A DNA stretch of 64,000 nt, from positions 1-64,000 of IMG/VR virus record IMGVR_UViG_3300022907_000005; one strand, given 5' to 3'. The notes under the pieces were generated by a model that saw only the letters and a list, made by a program, of their open reading frames with translations, made no database searches and was not told where the DNA came from. Numbering within the stretch: position 1 is the stretch's first letter; every line of letters starts with the position of its first letter. The stretch comes from a virus. Positions 6,520 through 33,046 of the stretch are shown here, piece by piece. A program made the translations under genes and the position numbers.

Positions 6520-6896
6520 TAAGAATCTCCTTCTTTTACGAAAACACCATCGACCATCTTACCTCTACGGTCTTTGATGTCATTATACGCTACACTTAGA
6601 CAGTCTGTCAATGACACATTGTTCCGTTCGGCAATGTTAATCAGCACGACCATACAGTCACCGATGTCATCTCTAACATCATTACCTTTACATACATTGT
6701 CACTAAGTTCACCTACCTCTTGGATCAATTTACAGACTTGATCTTTGTCTGTAGCTCCGTCGATGAGATTTCTATCTCGGTGCCATTGTTTTGTTGCGCT
6801 CACTAGCGCGATTAATCTTTCACTTTCATTCATTTGAGCAAGTCCTTTTAAGTTGCCGCGAATCATCATCAAAATTCTACGTTCATCATTTGTCAT
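6519..6896 (-). CDS. MazG-like NTP pyrophosphohydrolase
   Basis: KLIQEVGEL ... DDIGDCMVVL ... AYNDIKDRRG; ATGA overlap with polymerase stop. Confidence 0.85.
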   Translation of the reverse strand: MTNDERRILMMIRGNLKGLAQMNESERLIALVSATKQWHRDRNLIDGATDKDQVCKLIQEVGELSDNVCKGNDVRDDIGDCMVVLINIAERNNVSLTDCLSVAYNDIKDRRGKMVDGVFVKEGDS

Positions 6897-10334: not shown

Positions 10335-10958
10335 TCAAATAGCCGATAATTTAGATTTTATTTTGTTATATGGTTCAGTGAAATATAGTTGAAAATTTAT
10401 TCTGTCCTCAGTAGATACACTGACGTTATGTGGTTGTTGAACATTTAATAAATGAGGAGTAGTGTAGCAGTAGGAAAACTTAGGCTTCTCAGAGTTGACG
10501 CTTTCATAAAAATTTATTGGTGTCACATGTCCTTGTAACGGAATAGATAGAACACAGTTTCGATACATAAGAGTATCAACATGTACTGGGACTTTTTCAT
10601 TAGCACGAATGAATGTTAGACCTGCAGTAAGACACGCGGTGTCACCTTCGCAATAACGCCACATCAAATCCATAGCCAGCTTTCGGTGTTCAAGTTTCCA
10701 AAAATTGTATACCGACAATCTTACTAGATAATCGCCGTCAGTTCTATCACCAAGTTCAGATTTATTTTGATCATAGAAATCAGATGCTGCCTGTTTTAAT
10801 TCAGGATCATCAACGTAGTCTTCGATATGTGCAACATCAGAAGAACCACCTCTAACGTAATTCTCTGATTGTTTTACTTCATGAAATATATTTAGAAGTT
10901 CAATTTTTTCTTCTGTGTGTAGAAGATCTGCAACAGGCCACAAGTAATTGAATTTCAC
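10335..10958 (-). CDS. putative 2OG-Fe(II)/cupin-fold oxygenase
   Basis: HxD (VHVD) ... HNV ... RINFQL jelly-roll pattern. Confidence 0.55.
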   Translation of the reverse strand: MKFNYLWPVADLLHTEEKIELLNIFHEVKQSENYVRGGSSDVAHIEDYVDDPELKQAASDFYDQNKSELGDRTDGDYLVRLSVYNFWKLEHRKLAMDLMWRYCEGDTACLTAGLTFIRANEKVPVHVDTLMYRNCVLSIPLQGHVTPINFYESVNSEKPKFSYCYTTPHLLNVQQPHNVSVSTEDRINFQLYFTEPYNKIKSKLSAI

Positions 10959-10968
10959 GTTTACCTCA

Positions 10969-11382
10969 CTATGGTTTTTTACCTATGTTATATTTAGTAA
11001 CAAGGTCCCATTCATCTTTATCTTTATATGAGATGATTTTAATTTGACTCATCTCTGCCACATTTTCATGTAACGCTGGCTGTAAAATTTCTAACAGCCC
11101 CCAATCTGAAAGTAACTTAGCAATTATATTTCTTCGCATCAAATCCTCATCATCAATATTCGCTAACTTACCATCTAAAGCAAAAAGTTCTTTGAAGTGT
11201 GTGATGAAGTATTGCCCTCGCTTGTGCAAGATATGACAAGATTGATACAAAATTTTCTCTTTACGAGAGACAACACCGATACGAGATAAAGTTTCTCTGA
11301 TCTTTAAAAAGTCATCGGGTTCAGCGAGTTTGATTTCCAATGGAGCATAGCCAGGATAATCAATGTTAAAAAATTCACTCAT
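10969..11382 (-). CDS. regA: RegA translational repressor
   Basis: PDDFLKIRETLSRIG, LYQSCHILHKRGQYFITHFKELFALDG. Confidence 0.97.
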   Translation of the reverse strand: MSEFFNIDYPGYAPLEIKLAEPDDFLKIRETLSRIGVVSRKEKILYQSCHILHKRGQYFITHFKELFALDGKLANIDDEDLMRRNIIAKLLSDWGLLEILQPALHENVAEMSQIKIISYKDKDEWDLVTKYNIGKKP

Positions 11383-11438
11383 TATTTTATTCCTATTGAT
11401 ACATAATGTTTCGTACCAATATTTATAAAAAAGAGTAT

Positions 11439-11891
11439 TTAACGCCCCCCTTTGTTCAACCTCTGCTTGATAACCTCGATATTTTTGTCAGTCAATATGC
11501 GTAATGCATCAGCCGCTTTAGTATTGCTGTAGCCATAATACTCTTTTAAGATATCAATCAACTCTTCCTTTTCAGGCTTCATCCATTTGTTATATCTTTT
11601 CTTAGGGCGAACAACATTCAAAAGAAAATCATATTGTAGTTTTTTGTCAAGATGCGGACGAGAGTTCATTTCATTCGCAGCAATCACCGTGTCAGGGCCA
11701 TAGCTCATAGCCTTATTGACGATGAAAGGATTGTATTGCCTTTCACTCCAATCATCGACGATAAGATTTTCTTTGCTATGATTAATCGTGTTCGCAAAAT
11801 CGAAAGGACTAATTGCCTTTTTCTTTTCCTTGAAAGACTCCTCGTCGTACTGCTCGGTAGGCTTACCTAACTCTTCAAGATAGCTCGACAT
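11439..11891 (-). CDS. 62: clamp loader small subunit gp62
   Basis: YNPFIVNKAMS, EMN, LQYDFL, YYGYSNTKA; synteny. Confidence 0.93.
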   Translation of the reverse strand: MSSYLEELGKPTEQYDEESFKEKKKAISPFDFANTINHSKENLIVDDWSERQYNPFIVNKAMSYGPDTVIAANEMNSRPHLDKKLQYDFLLNVVRPKKRYNKWMKPEKEELIDILKEYYGYSNTKAADALRILTDKNIEVIKQRLNKGGR

Positions 11892-19885: not shown

Positions 19886-20317
19886 TTATGTCTCCTCTTT
19901 AACACGATTTCTTAGGGTTGTACTACTGAAAGAATGCTTTCTAGAATTGTACACAATTTCTATTGGCAATTCTTTACCAGTAAATTCTTTGTCTCGGTAT
20001 TCTTCACCGATGACTCGCACATCTATAGGCAATGCGAGTAAGATATCAACTAAATCTGCCTCAGTATTGTAAACGATGATTTCATCTACATATTTTACCG
20101 CAGCTAACTGCAACTGCCTTTCTACAATACTCTGCACTGGCTTATTCTTATCACACCTATCTATAGTAGGATCATTTTGCAAACCTACAATAAGATGTTC
20201 ACAATGTCGCTTTGCTTCTTCTAACATCACGATATGTCCTGCATGTAACAGGTCAAAGGTAGAACAAGTGAAACCTATTCTAGAGAAGCCGATTTGCTTT
20301 TTGTAATCTAAGACCAT
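19886..20317 (-). CDS. cytidylyltransferase (TagD-like)
   Basis: TFDLLHAGH (HxGH), YVDEI, FSSTTLR. Confidence 0.9.
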   Translation of the reverse strand: MVLDYKKQIGFSRIGFTCSTFDLLHAGHIVMLEEAKRHCEHLIVGLQNDPTIDRCDKNKPVQSIVERQLQLAAVKYVDEIIVYNTEADLVDILLALPIDVRVIGEEYRDKEFTGKELPIEIVYNSRKHSFSSTTLRNRVKEET

Positions 20318-20816
20318 TATTTTTCACCTTTGTCTTAATGCGCTTTAACGCCATGTCCAATTTCAACTTCGACGCCCGCTGCGTAAAGTTTTGCCCTAGC
20401 ATATGATCATACTCATGCAAGAAAACTCTCGCAGCCAATTCAGTAAATGTTTCTGTAGCCCAACTACCGTCTGTTCGTTGATACCTTGCAGTGACAGAAG
20501 TTGGTCTTTTCAAGTTTAGCCACACTCCAGGCAAACTCAAGCAACCTTCTCTCATTGTAACAGTTTCATCTGATAAGTCAACTACTTCAGGGTTTATGAT
20601 GTACCGAACTAAGTCTTTTCCATCACCGAATGTGAATACTTGCATGTCTAGCCCAACCTGATTGGCAGATAAGCCAGCGCCATTCAATTCCAATTGCTTC
20701 TTCATAAGCGCCTTACCGACTTCTTCTGCATTGTACTTTTCAAAGTCAAATGGAGCGGGCTGCCTTTTCAGCATATCATTGCCAAATTCTACTAGTTGTA
20801 AATTCTTTAGATCCAT
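20280..20816 (-). CDS. def: peptide deformylase
   Basis: GLSANQVG, EGCLS, HEYDH. Confidence 0.95.
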   Translation of the reverse strand: MDLKNLQLVEFGNDMLKRQPAPFDFEKYNAEEVGKALMKKQLELNGAGLSANQVGLDMQVFTFGDGKDLVRYIINPEVVDLSDETVTMREGCLSLPGVWLNLKRPTSVTARYQRTDGSWATETFTELAARVFLHEYDHMLGQNFTQRASKLKLDMALKRIKTKVKNNGLRLQKANRLL

Positions 20817-22486
20817 TATGTCATTACCGAATAGTTTTGTTTCTTTTGAAATTTGATCACGCTTCTGAATTTATCAAATAGTACATCACCTTTATGTGAT
20901 ATGACAAATACATGTGTTTCATCACCAATAGTATTTAACAGGTTCATAACGTAGTCCGTTCCATTATTATCTAAGCTACTGTCAAACACCTCGTCAAGTA
21001 TCAGCAAGTTTGTTGCTGCCGAGTTTTTCATCTTTGCTATTGTTCTCCAGGTGAATAGCAAGGCTAAATCAATTCGCTGCTTCTCTCCTTCACTGAAACT
21101 AGCATACGAAAACTTGTCTCGATGTCTAGACTTAATCGTCTCGTTAAATTTCTCATCCAGATTAAACTGAACAAAGAAGTCCATAGACGCTAAGTATTTA
21201 TTGACAAGTTTATTTATCGCAGGAAGAAATTGCTTTATCACGCGAGTTTTGATGCCTGTATCTTTCAACAACGAGCCACATGCTGATAGATAGTGTTGCT
21301 CTTCATTTTTCTCTGACCTAGTTTTGTTACTCGCTACGACATCTTTAGCCAGAGTTTTTAACTTTGCAGTTTCTTCATCGATGTCTGCAACGTTACTTTT
21401 AGCGTCGTGGAGCTCCAGATTTAACCTCTGTAGCTGTCTTTGATTAAGTATGATGTCATTGTTAGCATCGGATATCTGAGTCATCAGTCTAGCCCACTCT
21501 TTAAGAGTAACCTCTACTTCATCCATCTGCGCATCTAATTCTAAGGTAGCTGCCTCTAACTCCTCTAGCTTAGAAGTTCGCGCTTCCTGCATCCCCGTTT
21601 TGAATTCATGAGGAATGCCCTGCTTACATGTAGGGCAATCATCATGATCCTGATAGAAGTCTAACTCGGTTTTAATTTTTCGGAGTTGTTGTGTGAATCG
21701 ATCTCGGTATCGAGCAAGGTCGGTTCTTTTTCCTTCTGGATCTCCAAGATTCGTCTTCTGCTCTGTGAGCGCAACTGCTGTTGTTTCCGCATCATTAATC
21801 GTCTTGTCGATTTCAAGTATTTGCTCCTTTATCTCTGTTATTTTATTGGCTTTGCTTTGCTCTAACGTTTCAATAAATTTCTTTTGCAATTCAGCCTTCT
21901 GTTTTGCAACTTCCATTTTGGTTTCTACGTCACGAATTGTGTCTTTGAGAATGTTTTGTTTTTCTTTAAGTACAGTATTCATCACAGTGAAGATTTTGAT
22001 ATCTAGGATGTCTTCGATAATTTCTCTGCGCTGACCCAGTGGTAGCTGCATAAAAGGAGTGAAGGACGCGGAGCCTAGTATCACAATCTGTGTGAACGAT
22101 TTGTAATTTAACTTTAGAACTACCTCCTCTAGGTACTTCTGAGAGTCTCTCGCCGCAGCGTCCTGGTCTACTAGAACATCATCGCAATATATTTCAAAGA
22201 TATTAGGCTTAGTGCCTCGTCGCACAAGATAATTATGTGTGCCGATCCTGAATTCGATTTCAACTACTAGTGACTTGTTATTTATAGTATTGAGTAGTTG
22301 AGGTTTAGTTATGTTTCTGAATGGCTTGTTGAATAGCACATAGCATAGTGCATCAAGCATTGTAGATTTGCCGCTGCCGTTCTCACCTACAATAAGAGTA
22401 GACGGGCTGCGAGTGAATTGCATTTCAGTAAATGCGTTTCCTGTTGACAGGAAGTTTTTCCATCGAAGTTTCTCAAAATATATCAT
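20816..22486 (-). CDS. 46: recombination nuclease ATPase subunit gp46 (Rad50/SbcC-like)
   Basis: GENGSGKS, CPTC hook, FSEGEKQRIDL, LDEVFD. Confidence 0.97.
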   Translation of the reverse strand: MIYFEKLRWKNFLSTGNAFTEMQFTRSPSTLIVGENGSGKSTMLDALCYVLFNKPFRNITKPQLLNTINNKSLVVEIEFRIGTHNYLVRRGTKPNIFEIYCDDVLVDQDAAARDSQKYLEEVVLKLNYKSFTQIVILGSASFTPFMQLPLGQRREIIEDILDIKIFTVMNTVLKEKQNILKDTIRDVETKMEVAKQKAELQKKFIETLEQSKANKITEIKEQILEIDKTINDAETTAVALTEQKTNLGDPEGKRTDLARYRDRFTQQLRKIKTELDFYQDHDDCPTCKQGIPHEFKTGMQEARTSKLEELEAATLELDAQMDEVEVTLKEWARLMTQISDANNDIILNQRQLQRLNLELHDAKSNVADIDEETAKLKTLAKDVVASNKTRSEKNEEQHYLSACGSLLKDTGIKTRVIKQFLPAINKLVNKYLASMDFFVQFNLDEKFNETIKSRHRDKFSYASFSEGEKQRIDLALLFTWRTIAKMKNSAATNLLILDEVFDSSLDNNGTDYVMNLLNTIGDETHVFVISHKGDVLFDKFRSVIKFQKKQNYSVMT

Positions 22487-23135
22487 AAGTTCTCTTCAAC
22501 CAAGGCATGATAACTTGCCGTGTAAATGTTTTATGTTGCACATCGTCGGGATGACAGTGATAGCCCTCAGACTCTCTCTTTGTAAACACTGTGTCAGAAT
22601 ACGCTTCTAACCAATCAAATTCACCTTCGACAGGCAGCCAGTTTTTTCTACTCGCTTTCAATAATTTATACTCGGCATTATCAGTACCCTCTAGACTCAG
22701 TTCGCTAGGATATGCTGACATACGAGTCATAAAATATTTCACACCTTTGTTTTGCAGATACTGTTCAGTTAGAAACTGCCAGTATGCGGTAGTCAGGGCA
22801 GCACCTGTTAAGTCATGTAAGTTATTATAGTACACTGTTGACAATGGATCATCCCAATGAGCATTGAGAGTTTGCCAGTCATCGCCTTGATAAACTTCGT
22901 GACGATCAATGCCTGTCCACATTACACCTACAAGCAGATCTTCGGCTGACAGTTCTTCTAACAATCGCTCAACGCCTTGAACAACAGTTCGCGCAATGTA
23001 CTGATTACCTACAGATGATTTAGCATAATTTACTAGTGGCACATTTAAAATTTCAGACAGAGGTAAAGGCCAACAACGGGTGTGACCTTCTTCTGTTTCA
23101 GTAAAGCTACACCCTGAAGTTAGTAATACCTTCAT
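22473..23135 (-). CDS. SGNH-like hydrolase/acyltransferase
   Basis: GCSFT block I, GN block, C-terminal HP..H. Confidence 0.6.
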   Translation of the reverse strand: MKVLLTSGCSFTETEEGHTRCWPLPLSEILNVPLVNYAKSSVGNQYIARTVVQGVERLLEELSAEDLLVGVMWTGIDRHEVYQGDDWQTLNAHWDDPLSTVYYNNLHDLTGAALTTAYWQFLTEQYLQNKGVKYFMTRMSAYPSELSLEGTDNAEYKLLKASRKNWLPVEGEFDWLEAYSDTVFTKRESEGYHCHPDDVQHKTFTRQVIMPWLKRTYDIF

Positions 23136-24196
23136 TTAATATCTTGTGCTTCCACATATAGAGTTCGCAATTGTGTTTTCAACCTATCACGGTCAAGATC
23201 AGTATTGATATTATCCACATAATCTACAAGCAATGTCATCGTATCCTCTAGATCAATATTCTCTTCACCTACTGCCTCGTCTTCAAACTCAGAAAAGTCT
23301 TCGATGATTTTCAACTCATTGAGGTTACAAGTATACAACGTATCAACTAGCTTGTCAAATGCCGTGAAGTCCGTTTTGTTCACAACAATCAATTTGACAG
23401 ATCGGTTCTGTAACGTAGAGTAATCAAATTCCTCAATCTGTTTCATAACCTGTACATTAGTATCATCATAGTATACTTTATGAAACATTTTGTAGGGATT
23501 CTCATAAAATGTAAAGTCTACAGTTTCTGTCTCCATGATATGAAACCCTCTCGGATCATCGTAATCTGACCAAGTAATTTCGTATGGATTTCCGAGATAA
23601 AATATATTACCACTACGGTCACGATGATGAAAGTGCCCACTACAAACAAGGTCAAACTGATTAAAAATCTTAGAATCCATACCATGCTCATTTCTAACGC
23701 CTTTATACATCTGGAAACCAGCAAGTTCAAAATGACCAAAACAAATGGTAGCATCTGCATTCTCCAAAGCATCTTTTGATGCTGCATAATTCTCTGAACA
23801 GATCCAAGGCATCAGTAGAATATTAGTATTGCCGAACTTAACTTCAGTCGGATCTTGATACAAAATTATGTTGTCATACTCTGCGAGTAATAGGTTAGGT
23901 GAGTTTACTTCATTTGTATTTTTGAAATAGGTGTCGTGATTGCCTGGTATAAGATGTATGTCTATACCTCTGCGGCGTGCCGCATCAAAAAAATATTTCT
24001 TGCAACTCGCTAAGGTGTTGAAATTGATGTACTTCCGTCGATCAAAAATATCACCCAAGTGAATGATTGTCTTTACACCCTGTTTCTCTATCTCAGGGAA
24101 AAACGAATCATTGTAGAAACTCTCAAAGAAATTGTCAAACGGAATAGAATCCGATCTAGCACCGAAGTGCGTGTCCGTGATGATTGCTACCTTCAT
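23132..24196 (-). CDS. 47: recombination nuclease gp47 (Mre11/SbcD-like)
   Basis: TDTHFG, LGDIFD, GNHD, GHFE, SGHFH. Confidence 0.97.
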   Translation of the reverse strand: MKVAIITDTHFGARSDSIPFDNFFESFYNDSFFPEIEKQGVKTIIHLGDIFDRRKYINFNTLASCKKYFFDAARRRGIDIHLIPGNHDTYFKNTNEVNSPNLLLAEYDNIILYQDPTEVKFGNTNILLMPWICSENYAASKDALENADATICFGHFELAGFQMYKGVRNEHGMDSKIFNQFDLVCSGHFHHRDRSGNIFYLGNPYEITWSDYDDPRGFHIMETETVDFTFYENPYKMFHKVYYDDTNVQVMKQIEEFDYSTLQNRSVKLIVVNKTDFTAFDKLVDTLYTCNLNELKIIEDFSEFEDEAVGEENIDLEDTMTLLVDYVDNINTDLDRDRLKTQLRTLYVEAQDIK

Positions 24197-24639
24197 GCGT
24201 AAAAGACACCGGAGTTTGCGCCGTGTTCCATACACTCAACTTCGGTCACCCAACAGCGATTGTCTGTCATGTTTCTAACCATTTCATCAGTATATATGAA
24301 TGCGTGTTCAGCAAACTTTTCACACCCCACGCCATCAAGTACAGTAAGTGATGCGAGTCCAGATTCTTCTAACTCTTCAAACATATCCATTGCGGGGTCG
24401 TTAACATCGACAACAAGTTTGTGGTCAAAGTGATCTTCAAGCCAATATTTAAGGTCCTTCAGACCGCCGAAATCTACAACCCAGTTCTTATCATCTAAAC
24501 TTTCACAAGCAAAAGTAAACTTGAATCCTAGAGAATACCCATGCAACAAAGAGCAATGACTATGCGTTGCGTTAGGCTGTCTGAAAGTACACGAAAGTCC
24601 TCTCTCATGTCCATATGTTTTTGTAGATAAATGCATCAC
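24193..24639 (-). CDS. queD: 6-carboxytetrahydropterin synthase
   Basis: HCSLLHGY, WVVDFG, FDH, GCEKFAE, EHGANS. Confidence 0.92.
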   Translation of the reverse strand: MMHLSTKTYGHERGLSCTFRQPNATHSHCSLLHGYSLGFKFTFACESLDDKNWVVDFGGLKDLKYWLEDHFDHKLVVDVNDPAMDMFEELEESGLASLTVLDGVGCEKFAEHAFIYTDEMVRNMTDNRCWVTEVECMEHGANSGVFYA

Positions 24640-25682
24640 TCTTCACCCTTTAGTACGTTGATTAAACCGTCAGCAGAAAAATATTCTTCTGTTAGAAACT
24701 TATAATTCTTATCTATACTATGTAACATCAAACCATCATCATAGAATGTCATCATCTGTCGAATACGGGCAAGCAACTCTTCTCGGTGCTTTTCATATTG
24801 AGCAAAAGATGCTGTCCAATCAGATGGATATTTGAATTCGTGACTGTACATTTCGCTGTACGATAGAGCATCCGGCACTAACGGCATGCCGCCTGCACAT
24901 AGAATTTCATAGCAACCTATACCTAGAGTCTCCTGTAAGTTTGCAGAGAACACCATCTTAGCTGAACCAAGCAACTTATGATACTCTGCTTTAGTGAGAG
25001 ATTCATCTTGTGCTACAACCAGTGTGTACTCAGGTAAATGTTTCTGCATATCTCTGAATATTTCAGGCTGTTTCTCGACAGCTAATCGATGTGGGAATAG
25101 TATCACATCCTCTTTATCGATACCACGTGTGTCATGCGCAATCTCATGGATCAAATAATCCATAGGCCAGCCTGTTCGATACGTTCTATCAGTGCCAAAG
25201 CAGACATTGAACATACCCTTGTGATCATGCGATGCAAACCAATTGTAGTCGTATGCATGATAAAAACTTTTCTCGGCATGTTGCAACCATCGCTGATCAC
25301 CATGCGCGCCGAGAAAATCATTAGGGTCATACGAACCGGCATGCCAAAGACCGTGAGTTTCTACAGGTACACCTAGCAACTGTGACATGTATTTTAAGTT
25401 GATGATACCTGGATGCCACGCATCAGCGAACACGAACTTGTCGCCTGGTTGGACTTTGTTTGCATGAAACAACTCAGCAATTTTCCTAACTTGCTCAGAC
25501 TTGTAGATGTTCGTACCAGAGAAATTTAGAAATGCACCAGGTGTTGCGCACTCAGCAATGTTATTAGGACCGTCAATGACAGTCACAGCCGCACCCGCAT
25601 TTCTAATAGCCTCAGGGAAATGTACTTTCCACTGTGCTGTGTAGCGAGTCTCTACATATTCTAGATCAACTAAATAGATCAT
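24636..25682 (-). CDS. GT-B fold glycosyltransferase
   Basis: FPHRLAVEKQPE and ETLGIGCYE (EX7E-like) GT4-type motifs. Confidence 0.8.
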   Translation of the reverse strand: MIYLVDLEYVETRYTAQWKVHFPEAIRNAGAAVTVIDGPNNIAECATPGAFLNFSGTNIYKSEQVRKIAELFHANKVQPGDKFVFADAWHPGIINLKYMSQLLGVPVETHGLWHAGSYDPNDFLGAHGDQRWLQHAEKSFYHAYDYNWFASHDHKGMFNVCFGTDRTYRTGWPMDYLIHEIAHDTRGIDKEDVILFPHRLAVEKQPEIFRDMQKHLPEYTLVVAQDESLTKAEYHKLLGSAKMVFSANLQETLGIGCYEILCAGGMPLVPDALSYSEMYSHEFKYPSDWTASFAQYEKHREELLARIRQMMTFYDDGLMLHSIDKNYKFLTEEYFSADGLINVLKGEE

Positions 25683-26022
25683 TCTGTACAATACCCCCAT
25701 TCTCATCGTCTTCGTAAACTTCAACCTTGCAAGCTCTGTCAGGGTAATATGCTTCCATGTAATCAAGCAGACTATCTGCAAGCATTTCACATGATTGATT
25801 GTTTAACTGCAAAGTCCCGCCATCATATAACGCTTCAAGTTCACGCTTCAATAGTATGAATTCAACATCTCTGTCATCATGAAACACTCCAAGAGTCACA
25901 TAGAAGTGAAACATATGCCGATGTGGGTATTGCAAAAATTCTACACCAGGTAGATTTGCAGCGGCAGGGTATTTGTGAATGCCTTCTTTCTGAAAACTAA
26001 CCTGAATAAAACTTTTTCTCAT
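25666..26022 (-). CDS. dpdL: QueD-paralog T-fold protein, DpdL-like (putative CDG decarboxylase)
   Basis: LQYPHRHMF matches the LxxxHRHxF signature as I recall it for DpdL; SCE and terminal EDDENG; adjacent to dpdA. Confidence 0.7.
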   Translation of the reverse strand: MRKSFIQVSFQKEGIHKYPAAANLPGVEFLQYPHRHMFHFYVTLGVFHDDRDVEFILLKRELEALYDGGTLQLNNQSCEMLADSLLDYMEAYYPDRACKVEVYEDDENGGIVQNDLFS

Positions 26023-27284
26023 AAAAACAAATCCTCTAATGACGGCGGTGCGTCTGTTCGTACAGGGGTAGATTTCATACTACCTCCCAGATACTGGTCA
26101 GATTCCCATCTACGGAAATCGTCAACAGATTTGATATTATACAAGTTTCTGAATTGATGTTCAAGCCGCATCTTGACCGAATACTTCAATAAAGCATCTT
26201 TGTCAGTCAGCATGGTTTGCATAGTTCGCATGAAGTTTCGAGTACTACCTGCAACAACCATAGTCCTAACACGCATCCACATATACAGATCGCCGCCTAG
26301 TTTCTTATAGTCACCTACGCCGTTGTTTAGCACATTGTAGAAGTCTTCAATAGTAGTACCTACATCCATAACTGTATTGAGATCGTTGTAAATTAATTCA
26401 TAGTTAGGACCCCATGCTCTACCTATGGACATAGTTCTGCCATTGATAAAGTACAATCCATTCTCTGCTGCTCTTGCATGCGAGGTACTATCATATGAAA
26501 TTTCAACGTGATCATACAGCCCATTCTGACAAAAGATTAGATAAGGAATCATGCGTCGAACACTGCCGACTCCTAGAACGTGAAGATGTAATTTGCCTTC
26601 TGCATTTCTAAAAGGAAGCTGACTAGCAATAAATGCACGTTTCACATCTTCAAGTGGTCCTGTTCCGAGTGCAGCCGCACCCATAGCAACGCCTCCAATG
26701 TAGCCGTGTCCGCTCTGTGGGACCTCAGATAGCATCCTATCAAACCAAGTCATGTATGTGTCATAGCAATTTCCTTGTAAAATTGCAAATGATTTACAGG
26801 AGCTTGATTTCTCATCAAATATCTCTACTTGCTTTCTGATATTATTGCCTGTTTTTCTAGCAAGTGCCTCGTAGTTTTCAAAGTCAAAGTATCTACCTGA
26901 AACATCGTTTCTATCTGACTTGCCACTTGGCATGATGATAGGTATCTCATCAAAGCACATACCAACATCAGCAAATTCCGCTTGATTGTGATATACCTTT
27001 TCTTTCAACTCTTCAGTGATAGTCTTACCTTGTGTGACTATCTGCAATCCACCAGAGTCTGCGTGAATGTTTTTGATATGATCTCTGTAAGGTTCAAATC
27101 GTCCTCCATAGTCTGCTTCTTGATATGCATTATACAAGATAGAATAATTGTGACTATAATGATTGTTGACAAAATTATCAAAGATTTGATTTATCACGCC
27201 AGCAGTATCAGGATCATTAGCCGCAAGAGGGTTTGCGATCCGCATATAGCTTGTCCCTGATACTACATACTCTAGCTTATGCAT
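26019..27284 (-). CDS. dpdA: TGT-fold 7-deazaguanine transglycosylase (DpdA family)
   Basis: ADSGGLQ (TGT DSGGFQ), FDEIP, ILQG, GGVAMG, HVLGVG, SYDSTS; context with folE/queD/queE. Confidence 0.85.
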   Translation of the reverse strand: MHKLEYVVSGTSYMRIANPLAANDPDTAGVINQIFDNFVNNHYSHNYSILYNAYQEADYGGRFEPYRDHIKNIHADSGGLQIVTQGKTITEELKEKVYHNQAEFADVGMCFDEIPIIMPSGKSDRNDVSGRYFDFENYEALARKTGNNIRKQVEIFDEKSSSCKSFAILQGNCYDTYMTWFDRMLSEVPQSGHGYIGGVAMGAAALGTGPLEDVKRAFIASQLPFRNAEGKLHLHVLGVGSVRRMIPYLIFCQNGLYDHVEISYDSTSHARAAENGLYFINGRTMSIGRAWGPNYELIYNDLNTVMDVGTTIEDFYNVLNNGVGDYKKLGGDLYMWMRVRTMVVAGSTRNFMRTMQTMLTDKDALLKYSVKMRLEHQFRNLYNIKSVDDFRRWESDQYLGGSMKSTPVRTDAPPSLEDLFL

Positions 27285-27816
27285 TCATGAAGTCCGGGGT
27301 AGCTCTGTTAGTCCACTTAGAGAAATGTGCCTTGTATTGTCGATAATATTTTTGATATGCCAACACAGCATCATCACCCTTGACATCATCAGGCATTGCT
27401 TGCGGCAATACAGTAAGATTGCCTTCAGGGATATTCTTAGGTGAGTCAACAACAAGTGCGTGTAGTTTTGTATAGGAACCATGCTCTTTGCCATAGCGAA
27501 AGGTATACTCGTTGCATGTTTCAATCCAGAGTGTGTGCAACCATCGATAGTTCGCAGACGTTTCGCGTGTCCATATGTTAGAAGGATGGTTGATATGACT
27601 AGCTTTGTACAGCGTAGACTCCATTACATCATCAGACATGCGCCAACGCTTGATGCGTCGATTGTTTGCAGTTTTATCGATATACATTTCACCGTCAAGT
27701 ACACGGTGAGCAGTAGAAAGTAACTGAGCATATTCTGTAGCCATCTTCACAACATGCTTGTCGTTTTGTAGCATTGCGGCAACAGCAGGATCTTCGTTTA
27801 GTTTGAATACATTCAT
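27277..27816 (-). CDS. pyrimidine-dimer glycosylase (EndoV)-like protein
   Basis: MNVF ... DKHVVKMATEYAQLLSTAH, HINHPSNIW, EYTFRYGKEH. Confidence 0.7.
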   Translation of the reverse strand: MNVFKLNEDPAVAAMLQNDKHVVKMATEYAQLLSTAHRVLDGEMYIDKTANNRRIKRWRMSDDVMESTLYKASHINHPSNIWTRETSANYRWLHTLWIETCNEYTFRYGKEHGSYTKLHALVVDSPKNIPEGNLTVLPQAMPDDVKGDDAVLAYQKYYRQYKAHFSKWTNRATPDFMNA

Positions 27817-28025
27817 AGACCTAACACCTTTTTGATTTCATTACTCTGCTCAATCTTACCTAGATAGTAAGCATCAATAATAATATTATAGATGGTTTCT
27901 CTGTCCATGTCAAGCAATTTATGATCTTCTTTTTGACCAAGTCCGTCACGAAGACTCACAACCAAATCGCCTTGGTAGGTCATCTTGATGTCTGTTACAT
28001 CACGAAGGATTTTAGGCTTCTTCAT
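27813..28025 (-). CDS. hypothetical protein
   Basis: 70 aa, translationally coupled. Confidence 0.7.
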   Translation of the reverse strand: MKKPKILRDVTDIKMTYQGDLVVSLRDGLGQKEDHKLLDMDRETIYNIIIDAYYLGKIEQSNEIKKVLGL

Positions 28026-28026
28026 A

Positions 28027-28551
28027 CTAACTCCTGAGTATAGTCAATAAGGTTCGCGTTTGACTCATTGCATCGTCAAGTGCATTATGATGAGTGTCAG
28101 CCTCTGCCTTTCGTATCTTAACATTACTAACGCCTACTAGATTCAACACTGTCCTGTAGCACTGCACTTTCCATGCTGACCATGGGATAGTCCTATCAGT
28201 GTTCCAGTATGCTGATTCTAATATCGATATGTCAAACGCGGCACCGTTGCCCCAGATGACAGTATTCTTTCGGTCAGTCCCATACCATTCAGCAAACATA
28301 TCCAATGCATCACCAATTGGTTTAGGATCAACAGTCAATGCTTTCCTAGCATCCGGTGACTGCCTTGACCACCACTCAACCGTTTCTTTGGATACATGCA
28401 ACCCAACATCTTTACATGATTGACCATCAACATTAACATAGAATGTATCAAGTACCCCATCTTCGACATTAAAAGCCACTGCACCGATAGAAAGAATTGC
28501 CGCATAAGGTCTGACGCTAAGAGTTTCGATGTCTACCATTATATGTTTCAT
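28027..28551 (-). CDS. DEDDh 3'-5' exonuclease (DexA/Rv2179c-like)
   Basis: MVDIETL, WGNGAAFD, HNALDDA. Confidence 0.88.
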   Translation of the reverse strand: MKHIMVDIETLSVRPYAAILSIGAVAFNVEDGVLDTFYVNVDGQSCKDVGLHVSKETVEWWSRQSPDARKALTVDPKPIGDALDMFAEWYGTDRKNTVIWGNGAAFDISILESAYWNTDRTIPWSAWKVQCYRTVLNLVGVSNVKIRKAEADTHHNALDDAMSQTRTLLTILRS

Positions 28552-29234
28552 GATCTAGGTGCAAACTCCTGTTGTAATTTGATGTTGTCGAAAAATTCTT
28601 TCTTTAGGTCTGGCTTTTTAAAGCCCCCTCTTAATACAGTTGTCTGTGTTAAGGAACTGTGTGCTTTAATACCTCTGTTCTCGCAACAACCATGCGTTGC
28701 TTGCACATACACCCCTACATGCTCTGCGCCTGAGTGTTCTTGTATCTCATTAGCGATCATAACATTGAGTTCTTCTTGTAATGTACCACGCATAGCACAC
28801 CACTGTGCGATCCGCGTGTACTTACTTAGACCTAAGAGCTTGTCACCCGCAATGATTCCTATGTATGCAACGCCTGAGACTGGCTGATGATGATGCGAAC
28901 AAATACTTTTCAATTCACTTCTGACAACCAGCATACCCTCATAACCGTCTTCTACATAATTGGGAAAACTGTTGGGGTCTGGCATTGGATAATATCTGCC
29001 ACTCATGATTTCATGCACATACATTTTAGCCATTCGCCTTGCTGTACCAATGCTATTAGGATCTTCTTCCGTGTCAATTATCAGAGATTGCAACACGCTT
29101 TCAAATTTATCTGAGACTTCATCGACTAGCAAGTCAAGTTCATCATCTTCAATAAATCCTGAGATGTTATCTGCCGCATAGTATCGAGAACCAGAACGTT
29201 CAATTCGATCTCTAATTGTTTGGCTTATGCTCAT
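28548..29234 (-). CDS. folE: GTP cyclohydrolase I
   Basis: SICSHHH, GLSKYTRI, LQEEL, HGCCENRG. Confidence 0.96.
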   Translation of the reverse strand: MSISQTIRDRIERSGSRYYAADNISGFIEDDELDLLVDEVSDKFESVLQSLIIDTEEDPNSIGTARRMAKMYVHEIMSGRYYPMPDPNSFPNYVEDGYEGMLVVRSELKSICSHHHQPVSGVAYIGIIAGDKLLGLSKYTRIAQWCAMRGTLQEELNVMIANEIQEHSGAEHVGVYVQATHGCCENRGIKAHSSLTQTTVLRGGFKKPDLKKEFFDNIKLQQEFAPRS

Positions 29235-29793
29235 TTGTTCTTTCCTTCACATCATCTAGTATTGAATATGCAATTTTTCTATGTCCTTCTGCATTAGGAT
29301 GCTGACATAGTTCCATATCATCTTCACATAATTCTTTCAAAGTGCCTGGTATAAAATTATCCCACTGTTCCATCTGAATTAACATGTGTTCAACAAATCC
29401 TGCATACATTATAGATGGAACTGAATTCTTTGTCAAGTAGTTTTCTGCCGATCTGATAGAAATTTCTGACATGTAATAGCAGATATCTAGTTCTCTTGGT
29501 TTGCGTACCCTAAGATTCGCTTTCTTGAATCTCAAACGTTCTGGGTCCCAGTCCCAATCTCTAGTATGTCCACTCCATGTTACAAGTGCAAATTGATCTT
29601 CTGTGAAATCGTGTGCTAATATCTGACTAGCGATTGCAGGATTTGAGTTTCCATCTATACCGTAATTTATTAGATCAAATCCCAACTCATTGGCGACATG
29701 CTCGACGAACGGTGTGACATAGTAACGATTGTTCGGGTCTGGTTTATTTAGACCTGAAGTGTAGCTGTCACCAAATGCTACTATTGTTCCCAT
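29212..29793 (-). CDS. SGNH/GDSL hydrolase-like protein
   Basis: FGDSYT, GIDGNSN, HPNAEGH. Confidence 0.75.
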   Translation of the reverse strand: MGTIVAFGDSYTSGLNKPDPNNRYYVTPFVEHVANELGFDLINYGIDGNSNPAIASQILAHDFTEDQFALVTWSGHTRDWDWDPERLRFKKANLRVRKPRELDICYYMSEISIRSAENYLTKNSVPSIMYAGFVEHMLIQMEQWDNFIPGTLKELCEDDMELCQHPNAEGHRKIAYSILDDVKERTNEHKPNN

Positions 29794-30173
29794 GGGAAAA
29801 CTACCCAGTCATCAGCCTCAAAATACTCTGCTCTATATTTTGCCATACTATCGCCTGTCTTGTCTATTAGAACGGCAAAATCGGTGTTCTTAAATACTTC
29901 AGATAATCCTCTTATTGTATCACCTGTGTCACAGATGTCATCTACAATCAAAGCCTTTTGGTAACTTTGCTGTGAGATGATGTGCATTGAGCCGTTACCA
30001 TCTCTTAATTGGTATTGAACAGTAGCCATTGGTACGCCTAGCAAGTGCGACAGTTGAACAGCAGGAACTAAACCGCCTCTTGTGACACCTATGATGATGT
30101 CGTAATTTTGATCTTGTACGCGGCGATATAGTTTATTGATCATCGCATCATACTGTTCCCATGTTATATGCAT
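29781..30173 (-). CDS. type I purine phosphoribosyltransferase (Gpt-like)
   Basis: GVTRGGLVPA, LIVDDICDTGDT PRPP loop, WVVFPWE. Confidence 0.9.
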   Translation of the reverse strand: MHITWEQYDAMINKLYRRVQDQNYDIIIGVTRGGLVPAVQLSHLLGVPMATVQYQLRDGNGSMHIISQQSYQKALIVDDICDTGDTIRGLSEVFKNTDFAVLIDKTGDSMAKYRAEYFEADDWVVFPWEQ

Positions 30174-31060
30174 TATGTACCTATCGCGTTGCCGAAAACG
30201 TAGCTATGATTTCTCGTAGCTACTTTATAACCACGACACATCGCTTCCATGCAGATGTCAGCAACTTCTTCTTGCTCTTCTTTTGTCGCACCTGCAGGCA
30301 TTATCCAAACTTCTGGGTGCGGAATCTCGTTTGAATCAGCCAGAGCATTTGTTTCTCTACACCAGTAATCAATCTCGTTCCAAGAATTCTCTGTGCCGTT
30401 ACACACAAATTTTATGATGCCTGTGCTTCGTGTTGCCTGTAAGTAATCGACGTAGATATCTGGCATAATTTTGTCTTTCTCGCCAGCAGTGAACAGCGTC
30501 TTAGGACTAATAGCCCAATGCCAACGTATTCCCATATCAGCAAGATATACGTTGATGAAATCTCGCAGTTCAGGATTCAATGGTTTTGTACCGTTTGTTT
30601 CTACGGTGATTATTTTAGGTGGGTTGCCGCGAATCAGAAACTCATTGACAATTGCCTTCATTTGTTTCTGTCGCAACATGGGTTCGCCACCTGTAAAAGC
30701 AAGCATATTTTCTTGACCAGTTACAGGATGCGTAAATTTGTTGAAAGGTAAACTTAATTCTATTCTGTCACAAACTTCTTCAACATCACAGTCTTGCGCC
30801 AAATGCTTATACTTCTTTGACCATGAGTAGGAGCTGTCACATCCATACTGCCATACAGGAAGATCTTCAACCTTTTTCACATTGATCAGGTCATAGTCTT
30901 TGTATGGCAATATCCATGTGCTTTCATCTTCAGGATTCTTTTGACCGAAGCCATTGCATTCTAAGTTGCAACCAAAGAATCGAAGCCATGCAGTAGGTGT
31001 GCCAGCTAGTTCTGCTTCACCTTGGAAGCTATAAAAAATCTCGGAGTATCTAATATTCAT
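30173..31060 (-). CDS. queE: 7-carboxy-7-deazaguanine synthase (radical SAM)
   Basis: EIFYSFQGE, RFFGCNLEC ... CDS, TGGEP, VETNGT, ISPK. Confidence 0.92.
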   Translation of the reverse strand: MNIRYSEIFYSFQGEAELAGTPTAWLRFFGCNLECNGFGQKNPEDESTWILPYKDYDLINVKKVEDLPVWQYGCDSSYSWSKKYKHLAQDCDVEEVCDRIELSLPFNKFTHPVTGQENMLAFTGGEPMLRQKQMKAIVNEFLIRGNPPKIITVETNGTKPLNPELRDFINVYLADMGIRWHWAISPKTLFTAGEKDKIMPDIYVDYLQATRSTGIIKFVCNGTENSWNEIDYWCRETNALADSNEIPHPEVWIMPAGATKEEQEEVADICMEAMCRGYKVATRNHSYVFGNAIGT

Positions 31061-31066
31061 ACGCGC

Positions 31067-31095
31067 ATTATACAAGTATTCAAATGTTATGTCAA
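31067..31095 (-). promoter_or_regulatory. consensus sigma70 promoter for the deazaguanine operon
   Basis: TTGACA-17-TATAAT, 6 nt before queE ATG. Confidence 0.85.
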
Positions 31096-31098
31096 GAA

Positions 31099-31686
31099 CT
31101 AATCAGCCAAATCTTTAAGTTGTTCGACCTTTTCTTTCGCTAACTTGAGTGCTTCAGCATCATCAAAGTATTTCGGTCTACGCTTAGCCAGCTTCTGATC
31201 CTTGTGTTTTTCATTTAGCATTGCAGCATCATCAGCTTGCTTGCGAATGAAATCCAGATATTCGGTGTTGCCCGATCCTTCTTCATCTGCAATCAGCCCT
31301 TCTATGTCAACACTCTTGATATATTTTTGCTTGATGTCTAGCTGTTTCTTTTCTTTCTGAATTCTACGCAGAAAAGCATAGTAGGTAATTTGCGTGAAAT
31401 ATGCAAACGGGTTCTTAGATTTTTCAGGATTGAAGTTGTCAATATAGGTGATGCAGTTTTCAATGCCATCCAGAATCATTTCATCTCGAAAGGTATAATT
31501 GACAAAATTGGATTTGTATGCCAAATGGTTTGCAATCTTGACCATGCATTCACCAAGATAATGGGTGACGCGAGGCTTCGGTTCGTCTGCTTCTTTTGCT
31601 GCCAACACCTTTTCTCGATACTCAGAAATTTGTTTTAGAAATTCCTTGTTATCGATATAGTGAGCAGTCTTTGTTTTTGTCTTCAC
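31099..31686 (-). CDS. 55: late-transcription sigma factor gp55
   Basis: HYIDNKEF, NFVNYTFRDEMILDGIEN, NPFAYFTQI, RRIQKEKKQ; GTG start. Confidence 0.96.
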   Translation of the reverse strand: MKTKTKTAHYIDNKEFLKQISEYREKVLAAKEADEPKPRVTHYLGECMVKIANHLAYKSNFVNYTFRDEMILDGIENCITYIDNFNPEKSKNPFAYFTQITYYAFLRRIQKEKKQLDIKQKYIKSVDIEGLIADEEGSGNTEYLDFIRKQADDAAMLNEKHKDQKLAKRRPKYFDDAEALKLAKEKVEQLKDLAD

Positions 31687-31778: not shown

Positions 31779-32153
31779 TCAATGTATCTTTGTTACACTA
31801 TCAGATGGGATAAGATTTGGTAGCTCATCTTCTAGCTCTCCCTCGTCATCTCCTCCCAAGTAAAAATGTTCAACTGTTGCCATATATTCTGACGCATACT
31901 CTGTTTTTAGTTCAGTAATATAAAGTATTACACTACTATTTATAGTGATTGAATCCGCGCTTGAGAGAGTTTGCCAAGGCTTCAAGTTAAATCTCTCACG
32001 CATGTCCTTCCCTGCTTCTTTGTATAATGTGATAACTTCAACAGGAAAAGTGAGATTGATAGTATCATTCAAATTTTGTGTATACGCATTATCAATCATA
32101 GCAATAACTATATCACCTGTTTTCAGTTTAAAAATTCTTATTGTATCACTCAT
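31779..32153 (-). CDS. conserved hypothetical protein (Sm-like) upstream of gene 55
   Basis: IFKLKTGDIVIA ... LKPW pattern. Confidence 0.75.
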   Translation of the reverse strand: MSDTIRIFKLKTGDIVIAMIDNAYTQNLNDTINLTFPVEVITLYKEAGKDMRERFNLKPWQTLSSADSITINSSVILYITELKTEYASEYMATVEHFYLGGDDEGELEDELPNLIPSDSVTKIH

Positions 32154-33046
32154 GCAAAAAGAGACTCCAATGTGTTAACTACATAATCTTTTGTGTATGG
32201 TCTTGTTATTCTCTTATCAAGATATATACCATATCGTCTTCCTACATATTTATACCACTGCCCGCGACTAGCAGGTAAGCCATAGATTCTACTAAAGATC
32301 TTATCACCTTTATCCATCTCTGCTTTACGAGTGTTTTGTGCTCCAGCGTGTGTACTAGGAGAGGTAAACTCTTTCAACATAATGTTTCTTAGAATGTAAG
32401 TGCCATAACCATTCATCGCACATTCAAGTGCAAAGAAATCATCTTCACCTACTACTAATTGTCCATCTACATAATCAAACTCTTCGTTGAACATAACCTT
32501 GGCATCATTTTTTCTTAGAAAGAACATCGTACCTTTCATAGAGCCAAACTTTCTATCAAAGCACAACTCATCGTCCCATTTAACATTGAGATAATTTTTA
32601 TCAAGATTGCTGTACTTGTCTTTGAATGCGCCGTCTCCCGGTCTACCGTCCCAGTGAGGGAAGAACAGATCAACACCCTCAAAATTCTCTGGGTATTCTG
32701 TGAGTACGTCACATATGTTGATACCTGTGTGTGAGAATTCTGCGTGTTCTTTTAGTATAGCATCGTTGTCCATAAACAACGCCCACTCATGTGTGCTATC
32801 TGCATAGAAAGCCTCAAGCAATACGTTTCTCGCTTTCCCAGGCGGTACCAAAGCATGCGGTAAATACTGAACGCCAGGTATATACTCATCTGCGTAATAG
32901 TCTTGTGCTAAAACTTTAATTTCCATATTAGGACAAGTCTTTCGCCAGAATTCAATTTGCTGTTTGTGATTTTCTACCCGGATGCTTCTCGCTTCTGGTT
33001 CATCCTTACTGCCAAAGTAAGATATGATGTATGCTTTCACGTTCAT
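32150..33046 (-). CDS. GT-A fold glycosyltransferase, possibly DNA-acting
   Basis: GKARN, FMDNDA (DxD), GEDDFFAL; C-terminal TLESLFA. Confidence 0.65.
   Translation of the reverse strand: MNVKAYIISYFGSKDEPEARSIRVENHKQQIEFWRKTCPNMEIKVLAQDYYADEYIPGVQYLPHALVPPGKARNVLLEAFYADSTHEWALFMDNDAILKEHAEFSHTGINICDVLTEYPENFEGVDLFFPHWDGRPGDGAFKDKYSNLDKNYLNVKWDDELCFDRKFGSMKGTMFFLRKNDAKVMFNEEFDYVDGQLVVGEDDFFALECAMNGYGTYILRNIMLKEFTSPSTHAGAQNTRKAEMDKGDKIFSRIYGLPASRGQWYKYVGRRYGIYLDKRITRPYTKDYVVNTLESLFA

Follow-up and report, generated by a model that had tools for sequence, protein, structure and literature searches.

A predicted 7-deazaguanine DNA-modification gene cluster with a conserved glycosyltransferase on a T4-like phage contig

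Introduction

The enzymes FolE, QueD and QueE convert GTP to 7-carboxy-7-deazaguanine (CDG). Genes for all three are present in a fourteen-gene array on the viral contig IMGVR_UViG_3300022907_000005 (96.5 kb, IMG/VR), of which the first 64 kb are here called the window. The same array encodes a DNA guanine transglycosylase (DpdA), a QueD paralogue (DpdL) and a glycosyltransferase (GT). The closest described system is that of Cellulophaga phage phiST, which consists of FolE, QueD, QueE, DpdL and DpdA3 and makes 2'-deoxy-7-deazaguanosine (dDG); phiST DNA contained dDG and gave no deoxyguanosine (dG) peak (Cui, Hutinet et al., NAR 2023, PMC10516641). DpdL is set apart from QueD by the signature LxxxHRHxF in place of CxxxHGH (PMC10516641), and conversion of CDG to 7-deazaguanine (DG) is the role proposed for it in the literature. 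The DpdA2 enzymes of Vibrio phages nt-1 and VH7D were shown experimentally to insert 7-deazaguanines, and in E. coli the nt-1 enzyme introduced preQ0 into DNA (PMC10516641). When DpdA and DpdL of Acidovorax phage ACP17 were expressed alone in E. coli no dDG was formed, and the authors suggested that further enzymes are required (PMC10516641). DNA of Pseudomonas phage PA5oct has been reported to resist cleavage at G-containing restriction sites but to be attacked by END nucleases.

Related chemistry occurs outside phages, in the actinomycete routes to tubercidin and huimycin. To our knowledge, all DNA bases so far known to bear sugars are pyrimidines, such as glucosyl-5-hydroxymethylcytosine, arabinosyl-5-hydroxymethylcytosine and base J. 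Our full-text literature search found no account of a GT encoded with DpdA and DpdL, or of DNA that contains a glycosylated 7-deazaguanine.

Results and discussion

Gene content of the array

The array represents a variant of the known phage 7-deazaguanine DNA modification, with a conserved GT as the addition. It lies on the minus strand (31075 to 22473) in the order queE, phosphoribosyltransferase (PRTase), SGNH hydrolase, folE, exonuclease, orf70, a gene for a 179-aa protein, dpdA, dpdL, GT-B glycosyltransferase, queD, gp47, a second SGNH-like gene and gp46, and neighbouring genes overlap by 1-23 nt or are separated by a gap of 1 nt. All fourteen genes were found in the order and on the strand given by the original prediction, which had been made from the sequence alone (Table 1). 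The contig is T4-like and carries the backbone genes for the late sigma factor (gene 55), the Mre11/Rad50-like pair gp47 and gp46, UvsW and a family-B DNA polymerase. When the 8.6-kb region was compared with cultured phages by Megablast no match was obtained, and the contig has no close relative in culture at the DNA level.

All three genes for the deazapurine precursor are present, and QueD has the CxxLHGY form also seen in QueD of phiST. No match to QueC or QueF was found in the contig, which CheckV estimates to be 58% complete, and QueC was likewise absent from the complete genomes of four cultured relatives with the same module, ACP17, BUCT-ZZ01, PA5oct and Phosso; in a fifth relative, BUDD, the only QueC match was below threshold and distant from the cluster. 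These searches, one of which had been proposed as a check, agree with the suggestion that the pathway ends at CDG or DG. The gene that had been called DpdL-like was confirmed as DpdL. Its motif LQYPHRHMF fits the LxxxHRHxF signature, and the protein is 39% identical to phiST gp040 and 49% identical to DpdL of ACP17, with no match in NCBIfam or, at E 0.01 or better, in Pfam.

DpdA was found to be 34-40% identical to proteins of nt-1, KVP40, VH7D, BUCT-ZZ01 and ACP17 (tblastn, E down to 6e-96). The nt-1 match, VPFG_00171 (34% identity, E 4e-39), is encoded between FolE and QueC and is taken to be the DpdA2 of the 2023 paper. A weak match to tRNA-guanine transglycosylase (TGT) covers residues 68-290 (TIGR00430, E 8e-7). 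There was no Pfam match at E 0.01 or better, only chance hits were obtained among PDB sequences, and none of the 71 records found with DpdA came from a Cellulophaga or Campylobacter phage. Because its relatives are VPFG_00171 and other DpdA2-type proteins, together with the weak TGT match, we assign the enzyme by homology as DpdA2-like and not as a DpdA3 of the phiST type.

DpdA ends in SLEDLFL (26019-26039) and the family-B DNA polymerase of the contig in SLEDLFS (6893-6913). An SL[ED]xLF tail was kept in DpdA of close kin (loci L007-L009, L080 and L081) and in DpdA of ACP17, BUCT-ZZ01 and BUDD. From the tails of the T4 and RB69 polymerases such a peptide can be read as clamp-binding, and the tail of DpdA is probably a sliding-clamp-binding peptide, which would fit base exchange on freshly replicated DNA.

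The glycosyltransferase

An AlphaFold2 model of the GT (pLDDT 86) showed a GT-B fold with two Rossmann domains. Foldseek and VIA-align placed it closest to retaining enzymes of families GT4 and GT20, namely sucrose-phosphate synthase, MshA, BshA and OtsA (Z 23-24), with the alignment to sucrose-phosphate synthase covering 318 residues (Z 24.2, rmsd 3.5) and that to MshA reaching Z 23.9. Across 36 homologues the EX7E motif (E251-x7-E259) and R199 were invariant, K204 was nearly so, and the N-terminal domain contained many invariant aromatic residues. We read R199 and K204 as binding the donor phosphate and EX7E as catalytic, and the protein looks like an active nucleoside diphosphate (NDP)-sugar transferase. 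Several homologues carry PF00534 in a precomputed table; the GT of the window itself had no NCBIfam match and no Pfam match at E 0.01 or better, Glycos_transf_1 included. Translation starts at ATG 25682 and not at GTG 25790, so that the start of the GT gene overlaps the end of dpdL by 17 nt.

The GT family is very large: no fewer than 7991 protein clusters match it with an E-value of 1e-5 or better, and a relative is encoded in 597 or more IMG/VR loci. The viral counts given here per 80 loci refer to the best 80 of these loci. DpdL directly adjoined the GT in 74/80 loci, and FolE, QueE and PRTase genes lay within 10 kb of it in 52, 46 and 41 loci, respectively. A gene of the DpdA family was found near the GT in about 76 of 86 loci. 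Clustering of all neighbouring open reading frames (ORFs) yielded a 540-aa family in 67 loci, which we regard as a divergent DpdA because its hidden Markov model (HMM) matches DpdA of the window (E 6e-8). In cultured phages the GT was present in seven groups, and every homologue of at least 26% identity was located in a CDG cluster (ACP17, the Xanthomonas phages BUDD and X1, eleven PA5oct-like phages, Phosso and BCSR5). The module as such is already in culture, in ACP17, the PA5oct group, BUDD/X1, BUCT-ZZ01 and Phosso. It also occurs on unrelated backbones, in T4-like phages, jumbo phages, Busanvirus, Kyanoviridae and bacterial mobile elements, and the GT gene often overlaps that of DpdL or DpdA.

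The co-occurrence of the GT with dpdA and dpdL that had been proposed as a check was therefore observed, and, as far as sequence comparison goes, the GT is a conserved and catalytically intact-looking member of the module and not a passenger. The association was found to be asymmetric. The phiST group, Rhizobium phage RHph_I1_18, Vibrio phage Bakedbeans and others have DpdL but no GT, whereas a GT without DpdA or DpdL is rare. Such a pattern fits a tailoring reaction that is optional and comes after the DpdL and DpdA steps.

Six alphaproteobacterial chromosomes (L095-L100; Pelagibacterium, Ochrobactrum, Methylobacterium, Aurantimonas and Rhizobiales) were found to carry a compact module of a divergent DpdA, a Vut_1/YhhQ-type transporter and the GT, with DpdL in two of the six. 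No FolE or QueE gene was nearby, and in two loci examined the module adjoined VapE-like or OLD-family genes. From this gene content they look like mobile elements that would use a host-made or imported deazapurine.

Comparison with described systems

Like phiST, the array combines FolE, QueD and QueE with DpdL, here on a contig in which no QueC match was found. A homologous PRTase is encoded elsewhere in the phiST genome, and a DEDD exonuclease adjoins the cluster. Unlike in phiST, DpdA is of the DpdA2-like type with 421 aa (the phiST DpdA3 has 259 aa), a GT4-type GT is coupled to DpdL where phiST has none, and there is no MazG. The T4-like backbone, the FolE and QueD-like neighbours and a homologous DpdA (34-37% identity over the TGT core) are shared with Vibrio phages nt-1, VH7D and KVP40. 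These phages, however, encode QueC together with ArcS2 or QueF and DpdM, are associated with preQ0, G+ and preQ1 derivatives and modify a small fraction of G, whereas the array described here has DpdL and the GT on a contig without a QueC match. The same module of DpdA, GT, DpdL, FolE and QueE without QueC is present in ACP17 and PA5oct, but these belong to other phage lineages, differ in gene order and have no SGNH genes near the cluster; in addition, DpdA of PA5oct is of the divergent 540-aa type.

Further from phage deazapurines, the GT resembles the alpha- and beta-glucosyltransferases (AGT and BGT) of T4 in its GT-B fold and in a predicted tailoring step on top of a base replacement, although the partner base would be a purine analogue and not 5-hydroxymethylcytosine (hmC). 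A role of the GT in a T4-style hmC pathway was rejected, as the GT tracks DpdA and DpdL over unrelated backbones; dCMP hydroxymethylase was not searched for. The tubercidin route shares a QueC-less path through CDG with PRTase and decarboxylation, and the huimycin route is alike, by its description, in having a GT-B enzyme (HuiG) that glycosylates a 7-deazaguanine scaffold. Both routes lead to free nucleoside antibiotics without a DpdA, and their decarboxylase is of the UbiD type and not a T-fold protein.

The phosphoribosyltransferase

The PRTase belongs to the type I purine PRTases, with xanthine PRTase as its best NCBIfam match (NF006613, E 2e-17, under the cut-off of that model), and was present in 41-44 of about 85 GT loci, that is in about half. 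Homologues in cultured phages amounted to 29 records: 14 from CP220-type Campylobacter phages, five from the phiST group, four from Flavobacterium immuto phages, BUCT-ZZ01 and a few others. No homologue was found by tblastn for ACP17, BUDD, X1 or Phosso. Complete guanine replacement has been reported for the CP220, phiST and immuto_2-6A groups (PMC10516641), and these are exactly the three main PRTase-bearing groups in culture. Phosphoribosyltransferases are not mentioned in that paper (PMC10516641). A possible role is the recycling of guanine freed by base exchange, or the making of a deazapurine nucleotide as in the tubercidin route, and an XGPRT-like PRTase may be an overlooked factor that permits complete guanine replacement. 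This link is a lead separate from that of the GT.

Remaining genes, promoters and genomic position

SGNH193 shows GDS and HPN motifs. In the second SGNH-like protein, DUF6071, the motifs SGCS, GN and HP were invariant in the alignment, and every one of the top hits that Foldseek listed for the model was an SGNH/GDSL enzyme, with weak E-values of 1.5e-3 to 2e-2. Neither protein had an NCBIfam match. Relatives of SGNH193 were found in none of the 80 related loci and those of DUF6071, a family of just eight homologues, in one. Of 20 GT-bearing records searched with a GDSL HMM, 17 had no hit at all and three had hits only at a distance from the cluster. Because the SGNH genes do not travel with the module, the idea of an added acyl group is without comparative support.

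Conservation of the exonuclease and the 179-aa protein in the 80 loci was limited to T4-like kin and BUCT-ZZ01. Orf70 had no match in Pfam, PHROG or NCBIfam. The original prediction had labelled the 179-aa protein EndoV-like. What speaks for this is an Atlas feature score of 0.96 to clusters in which 12-33% of the members carry PF03013 (Pyr_excise), but the PF03013 HMM itself did not match and hhalign against T4 DenV gave a probability of 0.35%, so that the label is a lead only. There was also no NCBIfam match, no Pfam match at E 0.01 or better, and only chance hits in a search of PDB sequences. Kinship with the protein called a glycosylase in Phosso was considered and dropped, as the two do not match each other. 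We do not count the exonuclease, orf70, the 179-aa protein or either SGNH gene as part of the core; in our reading they are helpers or passengers particular to this lineage.

Table 1. Features of the array and its borders, listed in the direction of transcription (positions in the window).
Feature	Position	Strand	Evidence or remark
gp55, late sigma factor, upstream bound of the slot	31099..31686	-	phrog_234 E 7e-58
Promoter 1 (12/12)	31067..31095	-	in the 23-nt gap from gene 55 to queE
QueE, CDG synthase (radical SAM)	30173..31060	-	phrog_2076 E 4e-47; NCBIfam QueE N-terminal matches
PRTase, type I purine, XGPRT-like, 130 aa	29781..30173	-	PF00156 E 1e-14; NF006613 E 2e-17
SGNH/GDSL hydrolase (SGNH193), 193 aa	29212..29793	-	PF00657 26.2 bits, cut-off 23.6
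Promoter 2 (12/12)	29436-29408	-	within the SGNH193 gene, ahead of folE
FolE, GTP cyclohydrolase I	28548..29234	-	PF01227 E 3e-35
DEDD 3'-5' exonuclease, Rv2179c-like, 174 aa	28027..28551	-	PF16473 E 3e-46; phrog_255
orf70, with internal sigma-70-type promoter	27813..28025	-	no family match
Promoter 3 (12/12)	27913-27885	-	within orf70
179-aa protein	27277..27816	-	phrog_624 E 3e-49
DpdA, DNA guanine transglycosylase, DpdA2-like, 421 aa	26019..27284	-	tblastn nt-1, KVP40, VH7D, BUCT-ZZ01, ACP17; TIGR00430
DpdL, QueD-paralogous T-fold protein, proposed CDG decarboxylase, 118 aa	25666..26022	-	motif; homology to phiST and ACP17
GT4-type retaining GT-B glycosyltransferase, 348 aa	24636..25682	-	AlphaFold2 model, Foldseek, motifs, co-occurrence
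QueD, 6-carboxytetrahydropterin synthase	24193..24639	-	PF01242 E 6e-13; phrog_2389 E 1e-40
gp47, Mre11/SbcD-like nuclease subunit, backbone gene bounding the slot	23132..24196	-	PF00149 E 2e-13; T4 gene order
DUF6071 (220 aa, SGNH-like fold), in the variable slot from gene 47 to gene 46	22473..23135	-	PF19547 32.5 bits; AlphaFold2 pLDDT 78
gp46, Rad50/SbcC-like ATPase, backbone gene	20816..22486	-	AAA_23 and SMC_N

Three perfect sigma-70 promoters (TTGACA-17-TATAAT) were found on the strand of the array, all within 3.2 kb, and no T4-type late promoter was found from queE to gp47; the array therefore looks like an early gene set. The tight junctions of the proposed single operon were borne out, but with perfect promoters inside and in front of the array it is not one simple operon. 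The probable start of queE is ATG 31060 and not TTG 31075 of the ORF list, and that of gp47 was placed at about 24196. As the queE ATG stands just 6 nt past the -10 box of promoter 1 and has no Shine-Dalgarno sequence, queE may be served by a leaderless mRNA or by read-through transcripts. The cluster occupies the whole interval between genes 55 and 47, in which T4 has its a-gt gene. What is in common with T4 at this position is a DNA-modification slot and not a common gene. The DUF6071 gene stands between genes 47 and 46, where T4 likewise has small variable ORFs.

Proposed pathway and alternatives

We lean towards reading the array as an early-expressed DNA module of a T4-like phage in which modification by way of CDG to DG is followed by glycosylation. 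FolE, QueD and QueE would supply CDG from GTP, and DpdL would, with QueC apparently missing, convert it to DG. The DpdA2-like transglycosylase would then exchange guanine in phage DNA for the deazapurine, probably while its polymerase-like tail binds the sliding clamp and so keeps it at the replication fork. The GT, translationally coupled to DpdL, may transfer a sugar from an NDP-sugar, acting either on DG that DpdA has placed in DNA or on the free base prior to its insertion, to give a sugar-bearing DG; candidate acceptors are N2, as in huimycin, the carboxylate of CDG, and C7 or C8, where a C-glycoside would result. The PRTase could support a high level of replacement, by returning released guanine to GMP and GTP or by providing a deazapurine nucleotide. 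The sugar transfer itself, whether it takes place on DG in the DNA or on the base shortly before its insertion by DpdA, we hold to be plausible with the balance tipped slightly to the side of doubt. A sugar-bearing derivative is a reasonable prediction because the GT is conserved, looks intact and is part of the module. Two published findings are hints in the same direction, the resistance of PA5oct DNA at G-containing restriction sites and the inactivity of ACP17 DpdA and DpdL on their own in E. coli.

Several observations weigh against glycosylated DG. At 58% completeness there is room for QueC elsewhere in the genome. In four of the alphaproteobacterial loci the GT and DpdA occur without a detectable DpdL. 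No sequence similarity was found between the GT family and T4 AGT (hhalign probability 0.09%), and both AGT and BGT were outside the best 50 structures listed for the GT, the sequence comparison having covered AGT only. The family also did not match the QTMAN_N domain of queuosine mannosyltransferase. At C7, DG offers no obvious hydroxyl or amine that could receive a sugar, so that its glycosylation would be unusual chemistry. The structures closest to the GT are of enzymes with small-molecule substrates, and the GT family is acidic (pI 5.0-6.3), although DpdA is acidic too and the isoelectric point is therefore non-discriminating. Finally, DpdL and DpdA of phiST were also inactive in E. coli (PMC10516641), and since phiST is without a GT, the failure of the ACP17 pair is not a specific pointer to the GT.

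The missing acceptor group, the acidic family and the small-molecule acceptors of BshA, MshA, sucrose-phosphate synthase and OtsA are also what speaks for plain dDG as in phiST, with a GT that either has a target other than the modified base, such as a protein, a metabolite or part of the cell envelope, or serves DpdA as a structural partner and transfers no sugar; dDG is moreover the sole base shown for any DpdL phage. Such an unrelated target is hard to reconcile with a GT that adjoins DpdL or DpdA across all the phage lineages and mobile elements named above, and a purely structural role is disfavoured because the catalytic EX7E and the phosphate-binding residues are conserved. Some jumbo-phage loci also add GFO/IDH/MocA, ADH-like and HIT genes, which we read as types frequent in sugar and nucleotide metabolism. 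We consider this explanation unlikely, and still somewhat less credible a pre-replicative route at the level of nucleotides or small molecules, resembling that of tubercidin. In it the PRTase would turn CDG or DG into a ribonucleotide, the substrate of DpdL and the GT would be the free base or nucleotide, a modified deoxynucleoside triphosphate would be incorporated by the polymerase, and DpdA would have a minor or proofreading role. Tubercidin clusters do use CDG without QueC and have a PRTase and a decarboxylase, the substrate of HuiG is a free base derived from preQ0, the structures closest to the GT are small-molecule enzymes, and the PRTase homologues of cultured phages concentrate in the complete-replacement groups; the ADG nucleoside has been reported from CP220-infected cells. 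Against this, DpdA is conserved in nearly every locus and has a polymerase-like tail, the PRTase is missing from about half of the GT loci and from the four cultured phages listed above, the alphaproteobacterial modules have a base transporter and no PRTase, and insertion is treated as post-replicative in the literature (PMC10516641).

The original prediction had gone further and suggested a base that carries acyl groups as well as a sugar; in the full form of this scheme the acyl groups on the sugar would be attached or removed by the two SGNH enzymes. The sugar part gains support from the conservation of the GT with the module. Both SGNH-type proteins are genuine and embedded in the array, but with relatives in none and one of the 80 loci, GDSL hits either lacking or distant in the GT-bearing records, and DUF6071 a small family in a slot that is variable in T4 as well, the full scheme appears highly improbable.

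If glycosylated DG is indeed formed, it would add a purine-type sugar-bearing base to natural DNA and imply an unusual C- or N-glycosylation on a scaffold without an obvious acceptor group. It would also bear on the inactivity of ACP17 DpdA and DpdL alone in E. coli, on the targets recognised by END-type nucleases and Dag-type glycosylases, and on the sequencing and restriction behaviour of such DNA. The module is abundant in environmental phages.

Variation in related loci and neighbouring genes

In L025, L050, L056, L093 and about 20 other jumbo-phage loci GFO/IDH/MocA and ADH-like oxidoreductases, in 21 loci each, were found inside the module, as was a HIT-family protein in 22. A 175-aa family (F03) and a 156-aa family (F06) are conserved in jumbo-phage loci; F06 follows the GT in 56 loci, and one member has a weak match to 2-oxoglutarate-Fe(II) oxygenases. 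None of these five gene types has a counterpart in the contig described here, and a scheme of hydroxylation followed by glycosylation is unsupported in this phage, since F03 and F06 are among them.

Synechococcus phage BUCT-ZZ01 (L002), a complete Kyanoviridae genome, has two GT-B genes (7656-8999 and 10647-11813) that flank DpdA-DpdL, an arrangement that hints at a two-sugar decoration. In Vibrio phage Bakedbeans (L088, 6221-7372) DpdL is fused to an N-terminal domain of about 260 aa without a Pfam match, and no GT was detectable. The backbone of Rhizobium phage RHph_I1_18 (L087) is T4-like and shares genes 55, 47, 46 and deformylase with the contig; its cluster is located after the deformylase gene, and a macro-domain (Appr-1-p processing) protein (7402-8226) follows DpdL in the place of the GT.

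Two further genes close to the array were noted. Downstream of gp46 on the minus strand (19886-20317 and 20280-20816) a peptide deformylase is followed by a 143-aa cytidylyltransferase-like protein of the heptose-1-phosphate adenylyltransferase type (phrog_7878, E 3e-35), which could activate a sugar; it is kept in two related loci (L008 and L092) and is otherwise rare near the GT. Between uvsW and gene 55, a 298-aa ORF (32150-33046, minus strand) without a Pfam or PHROG match gave a weak Atlas lead to GT-A glycosyltransferases (Glycos_transf_2, 5/30 hits). It ends in LESLFA, a tail resembling those of DpdA and the polymerase, and may encode a second DNA-directed transferase.

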